From: Vermamoeba vermiformis
Lineage: Eukaryota
Direction: 5' to 3'
NCBI GenBank assembly: GCA_045837725.1
Contig: JBEWZL010000123.1
Coordinates: forward strand, 186,001 to 250,000
Length of the DNA: 64,000 nt
Both the position numbers and the translations under genes were made by a program. Below, one piece after another: positions 8,669 to 39,208 of this stretch. Each line of letters opens with the position of its first letter. The first letter of the stretch is position 1. A model generated the notes under the pieces. It saw nothing but the letters and a program-made list of their open reading frames with translations. It had not been told where the DNA came from and ran no database searches.

Positions 8669-11208
8669 ATGAGTTGGACTTCTACAACACCATCTGGAGC
8701 GAAAAAACAAGCTCAAGTAAGGGCAATTAAATGATCCGATCGTAACGAAATCCATTAATATTATTTAATAATAGCCCGCACAAAGTGGTGGACAAAGAGA
8801 AATACCTCCTTCGCCGAGGAGCTTTCAATTAAAACAAGATAGTAGAACTGTATCAACTGTAAATAGAGAATTTAATTCAGAAGCTGAAAAATGGGAGATC
8901 GACGCTTCTGAAATTACTTTAGGAGAGAAATTAGGCACAGGATCTTTTGGAGAAGTTTATAAAGGCAAATTAAGAGGCGTGGAAGTTGCAGTTAAGAAAT
9001 TAACGTTAAAAAAATTGGATGAAAAGAAATTGGAAGCCTTCCGAAAGGAAGTGGGCATTATGAGGTAAATATCATAATTTATTTTAATAATTAACTTGTT
9101 TTTGACGGAAATAATTCTTCAACCTAAAGATTTTTTTTTTCAACGGCTAATATTAAAAAAGACTAATGGTAATTTATTGATAAATAACGATTTTTATACG
9201 TTGTATGCATATGCATAGCCGCAATGTAAATATTTCTGCAATTATTCTATCCACGAGGGATCTCGCTGAAACTAAATCACTTCCCATTTCCAGTAAACTC
9301 CGCCACCCCAATGTCCTATTATTTATGGGTGCCTGCCTTGAGCCCGGCAATCTTATGATAGTAACAGAGTTGATGTCGCAAGGCAGCGTGTACGATCTTC
9401 TGCACAAACATCCGGTACGCGTCAATTTTAGGAGAAATTAAATATGAATTATTTTCGTAGTTAAATATTACTTCAGGGCATATAATTAACGCCTATTTGC
9501 TTAGGAACAATTGACATTCAGAAAGAAAATGGAAATTGCAAAAGGCGCAGCAAGAGGAATGAACTGGCTGCATCAATCCAAGCCCGTATCATTTATTCAT
9601 AGAGATTTAAAGACCGGAAACTTGTTGGTAAGACTCCAGAGCAATTTAAATTCTTTCCCACATAACGTCTAAAATTCTGCTTTTTATGGCAATTAATTCT
9701 AAATGTTGTTGCTACGTTAGGTCGACGACAACTGGTGCGTTAAAGTATGCGACTTTGGTTTAACGCTCATCAAAAAGCACGAGGAGAAAGCAAATTACGG
9801 TGCTATTGGCACGCCGTTATGGATGGTACGTTGGAAAGCTAGTCTTGATGCTGTGTTACCTATATAGAGTATATGGCTGGTGATAATAATAAATTGTTTG
9901 CATAGGCCCCTGAAGTGTTAACAAATCAAGCGTACGATGAATCAGCAGACTTGTACTCATTCGGCATTGTTTTATGGGAGTTAATGACGCACAAAGACCC
10001 GTACCCCGAGATCAACACCTTCGGCGAGATGTTGGAAAAAGTGTAAGTACATTAATAGGGAGATAGATCTAAACCGTTTTTTTTTGCAACTGCAATCAAT
10101 ATAACACGTACGTTGGGCACTTTACTAACGCTTATTACAGTTGCAAGCAACACCATAGACCAGCTATTCCAGAGGTATGTAGACAACGGCATCGCGTATT
10201 GATATGTACTAACGCTCGGTTAGTCTTGCCCACCTACACTGCGCGCATTGATGGAAAAGTGTTGGGATCCAGTTCCATCAAAACGGCCGTCATTCGAAGA
10301 GGTACGTTAATTGGTTGATCGTACTTTTAGCAATGTGCTCACACCATTTTAGGTCCTAGCACAAATCGACGGCATTTTAATTGAAGGTATTCTTATCGAT
10401 CCGCAAGCGGTGGCGTTTTGGAAGAAGAACTTCAACACTGCCGAGAAAGTACCATTCAAAGAGTTCTGTCAAAAGATCTCCGAGCATTACAAGGTGCCTG
10501 TTGACTCCGACAGCGAGATTGGCTTGTGTTTGAAGGATTTGTTAGAGAAGAATGATCACGTGACAGTTGACACTGTTGGAAACTTCTTGCAATGGTTTGG
10601 ACCATTTGACGGCCAACTGCTAACGAGAGTAAGTGTTGAACAGGACTCACAACAAGCTAATTCTGTTACGGGCACAACTGTTGCTTGACTTTTGTTCGGA
10701 CGAGTTCTAATGTGATACGTGTAGGTCGTGGACTTATTGAAAGAGAAGTGGTTCCACGGTGATATTTCATCCGCTGAAGCTGAGAAATTGTTGAAGTCAG
10801 AGGCAAAGGGCACTTATTTGGTTCGGTTCAGCACGAGGTATGATCGTGTCACTCCATTTCTTACTTTGGACTTGCAGGCTAATGTATTGTAACAGGGAAC
10901 CTGGTTCATATGCTATCAGTGCTAGAGCTAAAGAACAAGTTAAGCACTTCCGAGTAATGCACAAAGCAGGCGAGAACTACGTGATTGGTAAGCGCATCCA
11001 TTGTTGATTAATGAACGTTAAAATAGTGGGCTAATTCCTCTTTGTAGGCGCAAGAAGCTTTGACTCGCTACAGAATTTGATTAAATTGATAGCCGCGGAT
11101 ATCGGCCTGAAAAAGAAACAAGCCTGTCCAGGATCCAAGTACGAACAGATTTTCGCCAAAAAGAAAAATATCATTATGCCGTCAGCTTATGAAGAGGTTC
11201 ATCTGTAA
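8669..11208 (+). CDS. TKL protein kinase with C-terminal SH2 domain (Shk-like)
   Basis: GTGSFGEV, VAVK, HRDLKTGN, DFG, GTPLWMAPE, then SH2 WFHGDIS...GTYLVRFS. Confidence 0.9.
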
Positions 11209-11559: not shown

Positions 11560-14500
11560 ATGAGTACGAATGCTGAAGAACAGGAAAGCGGCTTCTCCAG
11601 GCCACCATTTACGACGTCAACCAGTGTTCGTAATTTGGTCGGTTTCTTCAAGGAGCTAGAGGATAAAGCTGCGAAAGAGCAGTCGAATAAATCCAAGAGA
11701 TTAACGACCAACTTGACCTCGCCTCTTTCAAGGTAAGAAATAATTTGAAAATCAATAATAGCATAATAACGGACACGCAAAAAATGAAACTAAACTAAGG
11801 ATTATCAATCCTATCGATAGGGAAGTCTCAACGCAGATCTTCCGCAAAAGGAAATTTAAAATTAAATATGATAACGAGCGTTGCAATTTTTTATTGATTA
11901 TAATAATATTAAACGGCAAGCGTAAATGAATTTAACGAAATTAGCTTGATTTTTGATTCCTCCGGTACGCGGGATTCAAGCGTTGCGCTAATGCACGAAA
12001 TCTTTATTTAGAATAATTCGGGTATTAATATTGACGATTATTTTTAGCCCTCGAGGACACAAGCCTGCTTCTTTGACAAAGAGCTCTGGCGAGATACTTT
12101 CAGCAAGAGGTCCCAACCGCAGCGAGATCGTGACTCGTCACAAACCTCAAACCTCGCAATCATTAGACGTGCTCGATTTATCTATGCCTGACGGGTATGA
12201 TTTATATTAATATTTTATGAATCAAATGAATCAAATGCAAAAGATTGGATCTGATTTCTGAAATTAATTAAGCGCTGTTCCGGTCGTCAAATTTAACACC
12301 AACCCGAAATTGGAAGTCAAAAAACAGTCGGACCTATCCCGGTCCAGCGATATTAAACAAAATCCAGCGGAAGAAAAGAATACGACAGATACTCAGTCGA
12401 GCGGTTCAGTGAATATTGAACAGCCAACAAAAAGCCCAAGTAATTCTTCAATAACAGTTCTAAGTGAGACTAATATTGACGAAGGTAAAAATTGCAAGAT
12501 AAAGAGAAAAAGGACAAGGAAAAAGACGTGACAAAAGATACGGACGTCGATCACAAATCATCTTTGAATCACGATGAGCCGAATCGATCGTCTGTTCGAT
12601 TTGACGTCAAGCCATTGCCAGATGAGGATGCTTTTAATGATGATGATACCGTTGGTATGCGACAGTCAGCGAGCGGTTCAGCAGTACACAGCCCCACATC
12701 ATCATTGGTAGACAGTCCGTCATTTATTTCGCTGCCCGATGAGACGCGCAAACGAAGGTCACGGTCACGAGGATCGGGCAGAGTAGAGAAGACGTCCAAT
12801 GAGGTTAAGAAAGATGCAGCACGAAGTCGATCAAAGAGCAAGACTGAGGGCAATAAAAAGAAAACAGACTCGTCACCCGACAGTGGATATTCGTTCAAAC
12901 GACGAGAGGATCTAGACAAAGATAAAGAATCTAAAAGGAAAAAGAAAGAAGAAGAGGAGCGCAAGAAAAAAGAGGAGGAAGAGGCCAAGAAAAAGAAGAA
13001 AGAAGAAGAGGAACGAAAGAGACGAGAAGAAAAAGAAGTGGCCAAAAAAGAGAAGAGCGAGAGACGCAAGTCGCGCAAAGGATTGGTGCCGCCCTTGTCC
13101 ATCAAAGGCAAAGACAAAGACGCGTTCAGTAGTGAGCCTAGCAGCAAGACTTTGATGTCGCGTGACAGCAAAGATGACTTGCACATTCGTTCAAAATCAT
13201 CTGTGGCCGAAGAACGCGGAGGCATCAAGTCCAAGAAGTCAATGCCCTCTTTAAAGATCAAATCCATCTCACCACGTGGCGAGAGGAAAGGTTCTAATCC
13301 GCCGCTGAAGGATAACAACAGCAAGACGAGTTCCGGTACCGAGTCAAGCAGCACGAAGCCCTCGCCGATCCAACTTCCTCCCAGAGATGTTGAGCCTAAA
13401 AGTGAGCCAGCAGTGAGGACAGATAGACCGAGAACTCGCAGTCTGCACAGATCCGCTTCTACTGAAAATTTTGAAAAACAAACACGCAACACCAAAAATA
13501 CTCCTGAACCACCTCCCATTCCAACGCCCGACGGTGCTGCGTCATTCAGAGTGCGCAAGAGAAGTTTGAGCACGAATGAACTCAAGGGTGATGGCACTGA
13601 CCAGGCCCTGACGAGCACTGAGCCCATTTCAATCAACAAAATGGCGAGTGAGAGCAAGCAACGCGAGGATACTTATGTAAATATTTTGAAGAAGAGTATC
13701 CGTGAAATTTTGTTGGGTACGAACACGAAGATTGAGCGCGAGGAGCTGACCAAGGTAAGTTCCTTCGAGCCTTTATATTTTGATATTAACACCGCTTAGA
13801 TCCGTTATGAAGAAGAGGCTTCGAGCTCTGAAGAAGATGACGAAGAAGATGTAAATATTTGGGAAGAACCCGAGGACTCGGAGAAGAACATTCGTTACGA
13901 CACGCGCGACGAGACTTTGAATCAATTGCTGCTACGACGCGCTGTGCCAGCCAAAGAAGGCTCGCGCAGTTTGGAGATCAGATGTGCCACTCTGAACAAG
14001 CTCGTTGAACGCTTGACATACGCTGATTATAGCGTGGATGACAAGGTTTTCATGCGCATCTTCTTGGCTACTTTCGAGTCATTCACCACACCGCAAATAC
14101 TGTTCAAGAAACTCCGACAACGCTTTGCCGTTCCTTCTGGCCAGTACTCAAAGATCGTTGAGCAACAGATCCAGACACGTGTTTGTACAGTCATGAAGGT
14201 AAGACTGATTTAACGTGGTTGTAACATAGTCTAACGTGTGCGTAGTATTGGATCGATAATTATCCGAGCCGCAAGTTGACCAAACAAATGATTGCACGAT
14301 TCCGTAACTTCATCAACACTGAGCTGAAAGAACAAGCGTACAAACCACTGCGCGATATTTTAGAGCAGAGTTTGAACAAGCGAGTACGTACTTATCGAGC
14401 CTCACTCACATCATGATATGGCCTAACGTTCTAATTTAGATTGAGACCAACAGACTGCTGCGCGAGCGTGTGCGCATTGACATGACCACGGACATTATTC

Positions 14501-15430
14501 CGCCATCACTGGCGAGCAACACCAAGGTCTACGATCCGGTGCAGTACTTCACTGAAGAAGACATTGCAAGTCAAATTACTTACGTGGACTACGAGGTCTA
14601 TAACGCAGTGCAGCCGTGGGAGATTATTCGCCAGATTTGGCGCTCACCAATGACCACGCGCTCACCCATCAAAGAAATGATTCAGCGCTTCAATTCCATC
14701 ACAAACTGGACTCTCGTCACCATTTTATCGCAGAACACACCCAAAGCACGAGCACAGCTCTACTCCAAGTTCGTTAAGATTGCCAAGGTGCGTACTTTTG
14801 ACCGTTGTTGCACCGTTAACGTGTGTTTAACATGTTTTTTTCATTCAGCAACTGCGGGAGATGAACAATTTCAACGGAGTTATGGCCATTATTGGAGCAC
14901 TGAACAACAAGGCCATTACTCGACTGACGCAGACGAGGAGTTTGTTGAGCAAGAGAACTCAAAAGGCACTCGAGAAACTCGATCAGTTGTTGAACATGCG
15001 CGGTAACTTCCGTTCTTATCGTGATCTGCTGTCAGATCTAGATCCACCTGCCATTCCATTCATGGGTCTTATCTTATCGGACTATACCTTCATTGTCGAG
15101 GGCAACGCCAGCACAGTCGACGGCATGATCAATTTCGCCCAGCGCAAGTTGATGTGGACCAACTGTCTCGAGCTACTGATGAAGTTCCAAAATGCAAGCG
15201 AGACTGACGCGCCTCAACACTGGGCCGCTGAACGATTGATTGCCAAGACACCGCAGTGGACCGATGAATTGGCATTTGAACGCTCGTGTGCAATTGAACC
15301 TGATGGCGAATCAGTGCGTCGCGATGACGTGAGCAGCATATCAATCCTGGCTGCGAAGACCACCGAACGGTCAACGAGCACTGAGAACAACGAACGCAGT
15401 GAGGACTTGGCGTTGAGTAGCTCAAAGTAA
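11560..15430 (+). CDS. Ras guanine-nucleotide exchange factor (REM + CDC25) with long charged low-complexity N-terminus
   Basis: ATLNKLVERLT/FLATFESFTTP (REM); NNFNGVMAII, PPAIPFMG, INFAQR (CDC25); 5' exon structure approximate. Confidence 0.85.
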
Positions 15431-23600: not shown

Positions 23601-24987
23601 TTAAAATAGAATGATTTTCGTTTGACCACTTTTAACGAGCTTATGGAAATGTTTGTTATACATATTAAAGAAATCTACTTTTGTTTCTTTCATATCCAAT
23701 ATCGTAAAGCTCTTAACAGTAGCAAACATATCAATAATTAAGTACTTGCAGCGCGACAGATTGAGACCGTCCTCCATATCCGCCAACTTATCGACGCGAT
23801 TAGGTGTACCAACGGCAATATCGACGGCGTGGTCTTTCAAGAATTTTTGTTGCTCTGGCGGCTTTTTGAACTTGGAGTACAAACGCGCGATCGGATGTTC
23901 TTTTGAGTCGAGCGAGTTCAAACAACTAAAGGAATATCGTTAGATCTACGCATGAATATATAATAGAAGTGGCACCTACTTGATAATTTCGATGGCTCGG
24001 TTAGTAGCTGGAGTTAAAATCATAATAACTGGACCTTCGCTCTTGGTCTCTTTCTTCTCTTTAGTCTCTTCTTTCTTATTCTTCTTATTCTTGGCATCCT
24101 TGTCATTCTTCTCGGTGTTACTGCTCTTAGCGCCCTTATCTTTAACAACGTTCTGTTTCACCTCGGGGGCAATGCGCTCAATAAGCTTGAGCAGGTACTT
24201 CAATTCCCATTCACTCTCGTCTTTAGGCTTCATAAAGTTGGACTCTAACATGTGCATAATATAAATATTGGCACTCAGGCGTTAGTATGCATTGGGCTCT
24301 TACCTTCTAACTTGTCCGACATTTCCAAGGTAGACAATTTGGAACCGATCGCTTCGACCTGTGGGCATCGTTAGTAACGAAGTAATATTTCGTGCATTTA
24401 AATATTAATAAGCTTACATATAAGGCCCAAAAGCTGGTCAACTGTTCTTCGATCGACTGAAATTGCAGTCCTTTCCACGTTCTGGTAGCGTTTGCTGCAG
24501 CTTTAGCTTTCTTCTTCGCCTAACAATCGCAATTAAAATTAAAGTTTCGACGATAAGAATATCTTTGAAGGAACTTACTCTTAGCTCTGCTAATTTTTGT
24601 TTTTTTCTAGCGGATCTGGCTGTTATTTTGGAGTAATAAATTAGATAAATTGCTAATAATACGAAATCATATACAAAAATTAATAAATAAGTCAATGTCC
24701 AAGTAGATGGCGCAGAATTGCAGGTAATTACAGATCGTGCGATGCGATCGAGATCTGGATCGCCTGACACTCTTTGCAATATGGGCATAACTGGTTTAAT
24801 ACTTGCCAATATCCTCTTCGGTAAGCTCTGCATCCTCATTTTCATTGTCCTCCAACTTTCGCTTGACGCCTCGCTTAGTGCCCTCTGATTTGGAGCCCTC
24901 ATCGACTACAGAGTCATCGTTGTCGTGAGAATATGAGTCAGTACCTCCAACAAAGGCTACGTTTCCTTCTAAATCAGCGTCTCCCAT
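23601..24987 (-). CDS. CMSS1: Cms1/CMSS1 ribosome-biogenesis helicase-like protein
   Basis: ILTPATNRAIEI, RLYSKFKKPPEQQKFL, AVGTPNRVDKL, YLIID; small size without a full DEAD motif. Confidence 0.8.
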
Positions 24988-25840
24988 AAAGATCTCAGTC
25001 GTGTTCCTCAACCGGCAAATGAAACTGGATTAAAATTTTCGACGATCACTAAAAAATGCTCCGCCAACGTCGTTGATCATGTTTAATAATGACAACTTAT
25101 TAAAGCATTCTGCGGTCGGATTTGTTGCTGGACGAAGCGAGTGAGGTCGCGCATTCAACGTCTTGGGCTTTTAACCTGTGCACTTGACAACTAAACACAA
25201 ATTTGGGAAAACGTGGATAAAATTAAAAAGATACGTATCCTTATACGAGTTGTATTAGATTTGTGCACTTCGCTGTAAAGCGATTAGGATAATGAAACCC
25301 CAAAAAGTAAAAAGGGCGCGCAAACTGCAGTTACCGTTGCTAAGCAGGGTTTTTGGTTTTCTTGTGGTCTTTTGACAATTCATTGAACATTTCAACACTC
25401 GCCACACGTGGGGCAGCACTGCACGTGGTCCGTCGCAACAAAGATCCCCCTTTTTTCCGGAGCGACGCGATCGCGTTCCCTTTCTCTCGCGCTACTATCG
25501 GCACGGTAGGCAGAAATGATATTCATTTAATTAATACATTTATTTGTATTTACATTCTATTTACAACCGTCGGTTGGTCGTGTTGCATCTCCCTATTGGG
25601 ACGGATGCACCAGCGGAGTCGTATAATAAGCACTTAGACGTTGCTTCAAAGTGCTACATCGTGGAATTCTGCTTCAGAAAAAGTTGCATGGCTTGATCGT
25701 CGAAAGACCAGATACTGAAATTACTGAAACAGCGATGTTTAGAGCTCTCTTTGGCTAAGACACGCTAAACCAACAGGCGCGAGTCGTGAAGTGACATCGC
25801 GCGAGCAAGGAGTGACAGCGATAGGGGTCGGGGGAAGCAT

Positions 25841-26050
25841 CTAGATGGTTCGAGAGTTTCCAGCCAAAGTGGCAATGGCAGGCGCAGTTTCCAAATCAGC
25901 GATGAGACGGTCTTGGTCCACAGGTCCGAAGAGGTTGCGACGAACGGGGCGACCGAATATATTGCGCTCGATCTTCTCTGGCTTGCGGATGGGCTGCGAT
26001 CGGGTTGCAGAACCGACGGAACTTCTACGAACTTGGTTGCATCGGGCCAT
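25841..26050 (-). CDS. 69-aa protein with a Cip/Kip-like cyclin-binding segment
   Basis: VRRNLFGPVDQDRLIADLE resembles p27Kip1 CRNLFGPVDHEELTRDLE; CA-rich leader like other genes here; AATAAA on the minus strand near 25540. Confidence 0.65.
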   Translation of the reverse strand: MARCNQVRRSSVGSATRSQPIRKPEKIERNIFGRPVRRNLFGPVDQDRLIADLETAPAIATLAGNSRTI

Positions 26051-27071
26051 GGTTTCTAACGTAAGTTATTGATCGGTTTCGTGATGTGGTGTGTGGTGTT
26101 GCGACTTGCGCGATAAATTAATTACACACAAGCAAAAAAATTTTCTTTTTAACGTTTTTGGAACGGAATCACATCCCGACGCTCCGTACTCCACGGTGGC
26201 TCACAAGGAGGTCTCCGTGAACTTCCATTTCATCTTTAAAGCTATCTAGGCCCTAGATATTAGTCTTTGGCGTATCTTTACGGAATAATAAAGATTCGCC
26301 CTTGTATACCGGTGCCAAATGGCCCTTGTGAGTGGGAAAGGATCCTTTTCGTGCTGTCACGAGCCGTAGTGTTTCGATGACTTTCTTTGACGAGATATAA
26401 TTTCGAGCACTGATATTAATGTTTAATTTTGTGATGCCTTTTAGAGAAGTGATAAATTTTAATGACTGGGTTGTTCCGCTAGCTTATGAAACTGACGTTC
26501 AGCAATAAATATAAGCAGATCAACTACGCGTTAAATTTGGAAAGATTTGTTTCAATTTATCGGCGTATCTTAGATATGGCACAGAAAGAGCAGATGTGAC
26601 ATCGCGTGCTTTTGTGTCCAAAGCTTAGATACACCTAGAAAGCACCGCAAGAATTCGTTGAATAATTGTGTCGGTAGATTCTAGCCGTATCGAATCTTTT
26701 CTTGCCACCCAGGTTTTAAATTGCCATTTTTAAACTTTGGGCGCGCAATTCAAATCTTGCTAAAATTTTGATTAAATTCTCATCTAGATGGCTCCGATTA
26801 AAGTTAACCTTCTTAGGATGTACATAAAATGCTTGGTGCTTAATATCAAGGTTGCACGTCGTTATACTTCCGGATTTCGTGTTTGCCAGGTAATTCGCTC
26901 GAGCGAATTGGGGACACAATTTACTTTATTGGGCCTGCCAATATTTTGCACGAATGGCTCGATAAGATAGCTCTCGAGTTGTTGCATCTCTGGTTGCTGT
27001 TTTGTCAAGATTCAGATTTTTTTTGAACCGCTAAATTTACGTAAAATTCAAATCTGATACCTACAAGAGTC

Positions 27072-28334: not shown

Positions 28335-29219
28335 TTATGGGGGAGGAGGCCTGAAGCTCGTTTTGATTCTATTCATCCATGCGTTATAGAACTCTATTGA
28401 CTTGTTATACACAAGTACAGCGGTGTCTTTTGCTCGATCAATTTTGAGCGGATCTTGATAGACTTGATAGCCAACAGCTGCGGTCAATCCGATGGCTCCA
28501 AGCTAATCACATGTATTAGTAATGTCAGTATGTTCGTAATGATTCACTTGAATATACCTTGCAAGCCAAAATTCCGAGTTGAAGAACGTAAGATCTGCGT
28601 TCCCAAGCCTTTAATTGCTGCCCATCAATTAATTTCATGCCTATTGAGCTACATCTCGGTGTATATACGCTTGTGGTAACGAATGTACCCCTATACGAGC
28701 GAATGTTAGCGTATATTTGATTTCCCGCCTTCGAGTGGATTAAAATTTAATTCAAAATTAAATAATTATTGACAAGAGCGACAGGAGTTAATTAATTTTC
28801 GATTGATTCACAATAGAATTGCCATAAACAACGTTATAAGAAAATTTTGTGACCGACCAAGTTCGGCAAACGAAATTTTTTATCGCGTGATCAGATCTGC
28901 ATATTTTTTACCTTGAAACAGGAATGTCATTCAGCTCCAAAACTGATTTGAATTTTGCTACATCGTTCAAGGGCACGAAATGGCTATCGTGGTAATTTTT
29001 GCATTCGTAGTATCGCTTGAAAAAGAATCCGTGAACAACATCTATTTCAGATTTGTTGCCAAAACGATCATACAAAATTACGTTTCTTTTTACATTCCAT
29101 TTGCCTTCTCGTCGTAATATTTTTTCGACTTTTTTCTCCAAATCATCTCCCTTATTTTTTAGTGCTCGTTTTTCAATCCACTTTTTAATCGGTGATTGCG
29201 CAGGCGTAGAAGTCTGCAT
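28335..29219 (-). CDS. Mrr-like PD-(D/E)XK restriction endonuclease domain with C-terminal hydrophobic anchor
   Basis: KGDDLEKKV..EIDVV..YECKNY..VPLNDVAKF..GTFVTTSVYT..LIDGQQL after splicing of two introns; then LQLGILACKLGAIGLTAAVGY. Confidence 0.75.
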
Positions 29220-38300: not shown

Positions 38301-39208
38301 GAGCCTCGTGAAGATCTCATGGTCAACTATTCGAGCAGCAGAACTCTTCGAAGAATCATCGAAGAAGGCAAGTATATTTCTTCTACTTTTATGATGGTAG
38401 CTTCAAAGTGGTATTGTCGAGGATTACAAACTAACGACTGAGTGTGTCATGATTACCTTTAATCACCAAGATCGCTGAGGACAATGCCACTTCATTCTTA
38501 AATTGAACGATATCCGTTTATTATCAGCGCCATTCTAACTTATCTATTGCAGAGCCTGACTTTGCCCCGTTGTTGCTGAACAAGATCAAGGACAAGATTG
38601 ACACCTACGCTACGAGCAAAGGTGCTTCATTCGTTGTGTTGAGTTTGCTCGAGTGCGAGACCACCCAAAAAGAGGTCAAGGACTTGTTGATGCCTCACTT
38701 GGCAGCTCTGAAGCAATCCAGCGAATCGGGCAGCAAGGTGCTCGTGAAGCATTTGACTGGCTCAGCGACGATCAAGAAACAAAAGTTGCAAGACTTGGGT
38801 GATGCCGCGTACATTCCTGGCCAGGACAAGATGGAGGTTGAACACGATGAACCCAAGCCTCAAGCTAAGCAAGCCAAGACTGAGGCAAAGACCGCTGCTA
38901 AGCCTCAAGCTAAGCCTGTTCAAGCCAAAGCTGCTCAAGCAAAGCCTGCGCAAGGCAAGGCTGACGCTAAGCCTGCGGCCAAGCCAGCTCAAGCTCAAAC
39001 TAAGCAACAGAACGGCGCTAGTGCCAAGCCTGCCAAGGCCGCTGCAAATGGTAACGGCGCAACAGTAGCAAAGAAGACAAATGACGCCGCGCCTGTAAAG
39101 AAAGCTGTGCCCGCTAAGAAAGTCGCTCCTGCCGCTGACACCAAAGTAGCTGCCAAAGCTAAACCTGTGAATAATACCGCTGCCAAGAAGAAAGTAGCAA
39201 AGAAATAA
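35306..39208 (+). CDS. PUM3: Puf6/PUM3 (Puf-A) nucleolar Pumilio-repeat protein with Lys/Ala-rich tail
   Basis: AKKLWEQVR, DASRVIQCILKHG, LHTRNGS, GAAKDRKAIIKSFK, DCVDDTVL and TSKKDPEIRRLEL motifs. Confidence 0.92.
36738..37211 (+). repeat. ~470-nt duplicated intronic segment (inverted copy at 48271-48743)
   Basis: Near-identical reverse complement of 48271-48743. Confidence 0.97.
36786..37155 (+). ncRNA. Long intronic box H/ACA RNA, copy 1
   Basis: GGAAC(36789)/GTTCC(37069) closing stem, H box AGAACA 37075-37080, 3' hairpin with CAAAGTGAT/ATCACTTTG upper stem, ACA at 37150 14 nt below that stem. Confidence 0.7.
38386..38482 (+). ncRNA. SNORD24: Box C/D snoRNA, U24/SNORD24-like, in GC-AG intron 38368-38552
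   Basis: C-like ATGATGG 38391, D' CTGA 38438, C' ATGATTA 38449, guide ATCACCAAGATCG plus D box CTGA 38475; guide complementary to LSU GAUCUUGGUGGU. Confidence 0.8.

Follow-up and report, generated by a model that had tools for sequence, protein, structure and literature searches.

The stretch of DNA analyzed in this work (the whole 64 kb, hereafter referred to as the window) is eukaryotic, with a G+C content of 40.7%, short introns, and a gene roughly every 3 kb. The Pfam analysis of 37 long open reading frames (ORFs) revealed the presence of Atg4, Sin1-CRIM, CAP, TGT, Cbl_N2, RasGEF, U-box, cofilin, CMS1, YjgF, and PUF/CPL matches, and also of ankyrin plus DSP phosphatase, DnaJ, Hpt, LRR, FERM_M, and PH plus kinase; the Rfam and tRNA scans of the window returned nothing. 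As regards single loci, the plus strand carries the Cbl_N2 (Cbl EF-hand-like) match at 10353-10688 (E 8.6e-8) and, downstream of it, a RasGEF_N/RasGEF gene (13800-15430), and the C-terminal exon of the PUF/CPL-domain gene (38507-39208, plus strand) has at its end a long Lys/Ala/Pro/Gln-rich tail (…AKPAQGKADAKPAAKPAQ…). A 103-residue Mrr-like ORF is located at 28908-29219 on the minus strand; two relatives of it carry Pfam PF04471, and the closest one, P0005, is 91% identical and is represented by 5 member sequences on 7 contigs (the longest of 535 kb) in JGI data. As for the lineage, the earlier note had proposed a probable amoebozoan. The gene content agrees with this (Cbl_N2, FERM, and Hpt in combination, and also RasGEF and PH-kinase), but the TACTAAC words of two RNA-confirmed introns (see below) and the several close relatives in JGI data would suit an early-diverging fungus to the same degree, and a unicellular holozoan may also be considered; an amoebozoan origin is thus one candidate among others.

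The gene with which this work is concerned is a very small one, placed on the minus strand, with a CMS1-like gene just downstream. The RNA evidence comes from four runs, whose reads or contigs were aligned on positions 24000-26500: X1 and X2 are Logan contigs about 99% alike to the window, while X11 and X13 are raw reads declared as RNA-seq, which come from a relative and are 90-99% (mostly 90-95%) alike to it. The features of the locus are the following, where P0001 is a database protein discussed below:

25841..26050, minus strand: gene of the micro-protein, 69 codons plus TAG, start context gaaaccATGg, with RNA cover and selection
25943..25969, minus strand: first docking-like motif, E28-RNIFGRPV-36 (R-x-I-F); P0001 has TERSIFG, with R, I, F, and G kept
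25916..25942, minus strand: second docking-like motif, R37-RNLFGPVD-45, identical to the p27 segment RNLFGPVD
25844..25915, minus strand: C-terminal tail, Q46..I69, starting like the p27 linker helix (L..DLE) and with an Ala-rich end
25841..25843, minus strand: TAG stop, present in the X1 and X2 RNA contigs and unchanged in the relative, which has no difference at 25841-25870
25739..25840, minus strand: in-frame ATG directly after the TAG, 33 codons in all (MLPPTPIAVTPC...), then TAA
25704..26183, minus strand: minimal stretch with transcription seen, from depth, with no joints and no indels
25539..25544, minus strand: AATAAA word, a possible poly(A) signal by motif match only, sequence read by eye
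23601-25019, minus strand: CMS1-like gene (Pfam CMS1), just downstream of the micro-gene, exon 1 from about 24994-25019 with its own ATG

The ORF runs from the ATG at 26050-26048 to the TAG at 25843-25841 and encodes a protein of 69 residues, MARCNQVRRSSVGSATRSQPIRKPEKIERNIFGRPVRRNLFGPVDQDRLIADLETAPAIATLAGNSRTI, in which ERNIFGRPV is followed directly by RRNLFGPVDQDRLIADLE. An earlier note on this DNA had described a 69-residue ORF containing RNLFGPVD and a second ERNIFG; this description is confirmed, and the strand, which was not stated there, is the minus one. The tandem nature of the motif is also borne out, with ERNIFG and RRNLFGPVD starting at residues 28 and 37, respectively. The RxL/Cy pattern [RK]-x-[LI]-hydrophobic is found at two sites of the protein, i.e., R29-N-I-F and R38-N-L-F, and the overall composition is basic (13 K+R vs. 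6 D+E), with no S/T-P sites. The gapped alignment of the two motif units scored 3.0 vs. -3.8 +/- 2.6 for the shuffled sequences (22 out of 2000 shuffles reached 3.0), a result that may be taken as weak support for a duplication; at the DNA level, the tandem motif was not picked up by the repeat search.

The X1 and X2 contigs are transcriptome-like: those covering the CMS1-like gene lack four introns, and nothing falls in the intergenic bins. Three of these introns are 59 nt long with GT..AG ends and the fourth is 187 nt long with GC..AG ends (GCAAGT donor, 24620-24806); TACTAAC branch-point-like words occur in two of the four RNA-confirmed introns. Between the CMS1-like gene and the micro-gene lie 680 nt devoid of RNA cover. 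On the micro-gene itself, the X2 contig spans positions 25704-26005 (word depth 40.9, one letter differing) and the X1 contig positions 25779-25982, both colinear with the genome through the TAG. The reads aligned over the whole 24000-26500 stretch are 78 for X11 and 85 for X13, with the greatest depth on the ORF (about 30-35, both read directions summed) and with coverage extending to the bin 26100-26183. No joints or indels are reported in the aligned RNA between 25680 and 26183, and the RNA depth is zero in all four runs at 25092-25679 and at 26184-26500. The inspection of RNA-seq data across the TAG had been proposed in the earlier note as a check; the outcome is that contigs and reads are colinear there, with no joint, and that the gene is expressed.

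The relative from which the X11 and X13 reads come is ~6% diverged and exhibits 13 differences in the ORF, on which nearly every covering read agrees. Every one of them is a synonymous change at a third codon position, so that the protein of the relative is identical; the chance of all 13 differences falling on a single codon position is 6e-7. These reads cease to align 5 nt before the ATG (loose end 26055) and, on the other side, ~50 nt past the TAG. The GC3 of the ORF (0.55) lies inside the range of the neighboring exons (0.37-0.61) and, hence, the gene looks native. Since the RNA libraries are unstranded, the transcribed strand was deduced from the conserved frame, and one might suppose that the transcript is non-coding, or that the coding ORF is instead a 75-codon antisense frame on the plus strand (25845-26072); the wobble positions of this frame are in common with those of the minus frame, so that the third-position periodicity fits both. 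However, 3 of the 13 differences change a residue in the plus frame, one of them to a stop (W64*), whereas none of them does so in the minus frame, and we consider this explanation extremely improbable. The other two plus frames would take 11 and 9 changes from the same differences. The 69-codon ORF is a real, expressed, and unspliced gene under purifying selection.

As previously noticed, the TAG is immediately followed by an in-frame ATG and 33 codons (25840..25739), and this observation is correct. The further idea, also put forward in the earlier note, was that readthrough of the TAG or reinitiation at the adjoining ATG might add, or separately make, a 33-residue TP-containing tail and, with it, CDK sites. 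Besides the position of the ATG, this idea would be in agreement with the finding that the first 8 post-stop codons show 2 changes in the relative, both synonymous, with PPTP kept. Nevertheless, the change in the 9th post-stop codon is nonsynonymous (A78D), and the reads of the relative break at 25791, 25751, and 25704, with loose ends that, read by eye, point to indels of lengths not divisible by three. Conservation declines over the first ~50 nt past the TAG, the product obtained by reading TAG as Q matches no Pfam family, and, to our knowledge, no known readthrough context is present at the TAG. The addition of TP sites is not supported by these data and appears improbable, and the stretch 25739..25840 is most likely 3' UTR. 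On our reading of the loose 20-30 letters, by eye, the flanks in the relative are homologous, with indels of this type. At 25751-25791, the reads of the relative have loose ends on both sides, and one consensus resembles 25806-25820 read in reverse complement; the 3' UTR of the relative may have undergone a small rearrangement or an indel here.

In p27, as seen in the structure of its complex with cyclin A and CDK2 (PDB 1JSU), the RNLFG segment occupies the hydrophobic patch on the cyclin, from which a helix extends to the kinase, and the W-N-F-D-F hairpin with the residues following it binds CDK2 and fills the ATP site. In our case, the ORF ends 24 residues past PVD, and the previous claim that no CDK-binding segment exists here in any frame held both for the window and for the transcript. 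Indeed, the six-frame regular-expression scan of the 64-kb window detected neither W-x-F-[DEN]-[FY] nor W-[DNGE]-[FY]-[DN]-F (and RNLFG only once), and the RNA is colinear and unspliced. A weak W-N-F-D-F look-alike, IWSFDD, can be read in another frame of the 3' flank (25697-25714, minus strand), where it is preceded by two tttcag acceptor-like words.

It might be argued that a full-length Cip/Kip gene exists or existed here, of which the ORF would be just exon 1 or what is left after decay, with the CDK-binding part further downstream. Animal genes have W-N-F-D-F within about 15 residues of the docking segment, as seen in the p21-like gene of contig L001 (see below), and IWSFDD, although in a different frame, is 130 nt past the stop. 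On the other hand, the RNA runs through the stop with no joint or indel, and no usable splice donor exists before it: from codon 48 to the stop there is no GT, and none of the GC dinucleotides in the ORF tail resembles the GCAAGT donor of the adjoining gene. No donor could feed IWSFDD, whose frame, moreover, meets a stop in the relative (loose-end letters read by eye). The next gene downstream is the separately transcribed CMS1-like one, with zero RNA depth between the two, and W-x-F-D-F is found in no frame of the 64 kb. Decay, in turn, is contradicted by the synonymous nature of all 13 changes. On the whole, an incomplete or decayed Cip/Kip gene is a very improbable explanation.

The search of the PDB sequences at E<=10 gave 11 matches, 10 of which are p27Kip1 or p21Cip1, the best one with an E-value of 0.2, so that none of them is significant by itself. 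In the alignment, residues 36-55 of the query correspond to residues 28-47 of p27 (...RNLFGPVD..L..DLE.), with L49, D52, L53, and E54 aligning with p27, and the linker helix would be cut short. Judging from this alignment, the micro-protein has the docking segment plus one or two turns at the beginning of the linker helix, and lacks the other three fifths of the CDI domain. A pattern scan of metagenome contigs gave at least 591 pattern matches and, among those listed, one was confirmed by tblastn, i.e., L001. The ORF of L001 is a vertebrate-like p21 gene and represents a positive control, since it matches Pfam CDI with 65.7 bits (E 3.9e-18), the gathering cut-off of this family (PF02234) being 25 bits. 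This p21-like gene occupies positions 829-1371 of the plus strand of L001, its CDI domain is followed by KRKQTNIT before an apparent intron, and it presumably comes from animal DNA in the sample. The micro-protein and the L001 protein have PVRRNLFGPVD in common (11 residues in a row), with 13 identities out of 22 and a pairwise E-value of 7e-8, and in both of them the motif is located ~35 residues from the N-terminus.

In the case of the 69-residue protein, the Pfam search retrieved no family at E<=10, CDI included. The CDI profile had been indicated in the earlier note as a way to check the assignment, and it was not matched at this threshold, either with or without readthrough. By the Pfam test, the micro-protein falls outside the CDI family, although it carries the docking segment of these proteins. 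The identification of the motif with the Cip/Kip cyclin-docking segment, also claimed previously, stands as far as sequence can show, on the basis of the matches with p27 and p21 in the PDB and with L001. The match goes beyond chance, the expectation in the six frames of the window being 5e-6 for RNLFGPVD and 7e-10 for PVRRNLFGPVD. On its own, the former should occur by chance roughly once in a set of some 250,000 windows, so that the weight falls on its occurrence in an expressed ORF under purifying selection. The likeness to p27/p21 is real but short.

A word-indexed search of 5.8 billion proteins retrieved a single match of similar length, P0001, a "hypothetical protein" of 69 residues that is 97% identical to the micro-protein; the same search among longer proteins gave 52 candidates, none of them at E<=10. 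P0001 differs from the micro-protein at 2 of the 69 residues (I27T and N30S), with R-x-I-F-G intact. The phmmer search of 1.84 billion representative proteins returned four proteins at E<=0.001, i.e., P0001 and three long repeat proteins. The latter (P0002, P0003, and P0004) were considered as relatives and rejected on reading, as they are WD40 and FG-repeat proteins. These weak repeat matches imply that the segment has some low-specificity character. No Cip/Kip protein was found by phmmer at E<=0.001 among the 1.84 billion representatives and, as a consequence, homology rests on about 20 residues. The search of the ESM Atlas gave no usable match with the micro-protein, nor with a RasGEF exon of the window. 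Judged by these similarities, P0001 is the only true relative among the 1.84 billion representative proteins, and the family is known from a single tight species cluster. The absence of the family elsewhere is weak evidence, since ORFs so small are often unannotated. Conservation of the motif in relatives, to which the earlier note had tied its proposal, was observed at the defining positions in the two relatives available: the protein of the X11/X13 relative is identical, and P0001 alters I27 and the x position, N30.

A different explanation has to be weighed here, that is, the possibility that the micro-protein is real but that its likeness to Cip/Kip proteins is convergent or coincidental, in which case it would have some other partner (e.g., an FG-type one or another short linear motif pair) and no cyclin role. 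RxL motifs can arise convergently. The lack of a match with Pfam CDI, the PDB E-values of 0.2 or worse, the weak match statistics outside the 11-mer, and the frequency at which the 8-mer alone is expected by chance would fit this explanation, as would the finding that in phmmer an FG-repeat protein, P0003 (E 8.7e-5, ...LFGRPTSGSIFG...), outranks any Cip/Kip protein. However, 11 consecutive residues are identical to those of a confirmed CDI protein, L..DLE is in register with p27, and the substitution N30S of P0001 hits the free "x" of R-x-I-F. In addition, the spacers of the micro-protein are strongly basic and those of P0003 are uncharged, which argues against an FG-type role. Convergence appears to us possible, though doubtful. 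An assignment to FG-repeat nucleoporin-like segments was also considered and discarded: only two FG are present, with an R/K-rich spacer and flanks, whereas P0003 has dozens of repeats with S/T/Q spacers.

The single-sequence AlphaFold2 model of the protein has a low confidence (mean pLDDT 61.3, pTM 0.18). It displays no regular structure before residue 45, except for two 2-residue bridges, and two helices at residues 46-55 and 57-67 (block pLDDT 51-66). The model would agree with a docking region that is disordered and precedes a helix, and it shows nothing beyond that.

On these grounds, the micro-protein is best read as a protein that would compete, by itself, for the hydrophobic patch present on cyclins, a reading to which we would assign a probability of about one half. 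The locus is a separate, intron-less gene encoding a 7.6-kDa, basic, and by prediction largely disordered protein, the core of which is a tandem pair of putative cyclin-docking (RxL/Cy) motifs, RNIF-GRPV and RNLF-GPVD; the second one apparently leads into a helix just as its counterpart does in p27Kip1 (RNLFGPVD..L..DLE). The hydrophobic (MRAIL) patch of at least one cyclin might accommodate these motifs, as it does the N-terminal sub-domain of p27/p21. Since both the W-N-F-D-F hairpin and the 3-10 helix are absent, the protein should not be able to block the ATP site; having only the first part of p27, it could occupy the patch without blocking catalysis, which is why we read it as a docking-site competitor. 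The predicted effect would be a lower phosphorylation of RxL-dependent substrates or the displacement of other RxL partners, and the existence of two motifs might confer a higher avidity or allow the bridging of two cyclins. The absence of S/T-P sites implies that the protein would not be itself a CDK substrate. What we infer from the sequence is that the protein would bind cyclins, compete at their patch, and derive from a Cip/Kip-type ancestor instead of being a product of convergence. In its most extended form, the proposal would be that a non-animal eukaryote (an amoebozoan or an early-diverging fungus, lineages with no recognized CDK inhibitor of this type) possesses the docking module of Cip/Kip/KRP proteins as a duplicated micro-gene standing on its own, which encodes a "docking-only" cyclin antagonist that descended from an ancestral inhibitor; we advance this form very tentatively, as a rather unlikely scenario.

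If the micro-protein does bind cyclins, it would be a natural inhibitor working only via the substrate-docking patch, with a recognizable Cip/Kip docking segment, outside animals. In that case, both the age of Cip/Kip/KRP-type inhibitors and the separate evolution of the two binding modules would become testable issues. If the docking-only descent is true, the two halves of Cip/Kip proteins, cyclin-binding and CDK-binding, are able to evolve and function independently. A cyclin-binding micro-protein would also provide a candidate regulator in lineages without an annotated one; genes of this kind are easily missed, since ORFs under 100 codons are often uncalled. Docking-site competitors are a current drug idea, and a tandem-RxL protein kept by selection might represent a natural template for them. 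If, on the contrary, no cyclin is bound, the gene would encode one more lineage-restricted micro-protein, with its role unassigned.

As for previous reports, Dictyostelium is described, in the accessible part of one paper, as lacking identifiable CKI homologues (PMC3386910), and the accessible parts of papers on fungal cell-cycle evolution (PMC4862756), the Physarum genome (PMC4758236), and the Capsaspora cell cycle (PMC7098662) do not treat Cip/Kip-type inhibitors outside animals and plants. The literature text search (LFGPVD; Cip/Kip-type inhibitors in amoebozoans) disclosed nothing in print like a free-standing docking module. Within the scope of these searches, a selectively maintained Cip/Kip-type docking module that is in tandem and stands on its own appears to be a new form of a known type.

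The comparison with known systems starts from the CDI proteins p27Kip1, p21Cip1, and p57Kip2, to which the micro-protein is similar in having R-N-L-F-G-P-V-D ~35 residues from the start, followed by L..DLE, and in being basic and, by prediction, disordered. It differs from them in that it has no W-N-F-D-F hairpin, 3-10 helix, C-terminal regulatory half, or PIP box, its docking motif is duplicated in tandem, and the Pfam profile is unmatched. A second comparison concerns the RxL (Cy) motifs of CDK substrates and of synthetic competitor peptides, with which the micro-protein has in common the [RK]-x-[LI]-[F] pattern in a disordered stretch, at residues 29 and 38. Unlike the motifs of the substrates, those of the micro-protein are embedded in a whole gene product, rather than in a part of a substrate, and no S/T-P site accompanies them. 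Synthetic RxL peptides act by competing for the cyclin patch.

As to the proposed mode of action, the closest system is that of Drosophila Fruhstart (Z600), a small mitotic inhibitor that is said, by Gawlinski et al. in EMBO Rep in 2007, to bind the cyclin hydrophobic patch: in both cases, a very small protein would act at the docking patch of the cyclin and not in the kinase cleft. We know of no Cip/Kip-type motif in Fruhstart/Z600. This is an insect gene, and the likeness, drawn from descriptions, concerns the mode of action. In the accessible text of a further paper, Z600/Frs is described as a CKI binding CycB-Cdk1 (PMC10670764).

The plant SIAMESE/SMR proteins offer a precedent of a different kind. 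According to the accessible part of the source, they are proteins of 8-19 kDa that have one short putative cyclin-binding motif (motif C, consensus EIERFF) in common with the larger KIP-related proteins (PMC10904545). From what that text reports, the SIM/SMR proteins also carry further motifs (A, B, and NLS), whereas the second motif of the micro-protein is of the animal type. Set against EIERFF as given there, the PEKIERNIF segment of the micro-protein (residues 24-31, 25958-25981, minus strand) has I-E-R and F in common, i.e., 4 residues, by eye. On the basis of this partial description, the SIM/SMR family would represent the precedent for a micro-inhibitor keeping one module of a larger family and, in this respect, the known system closest to the micro-protein.
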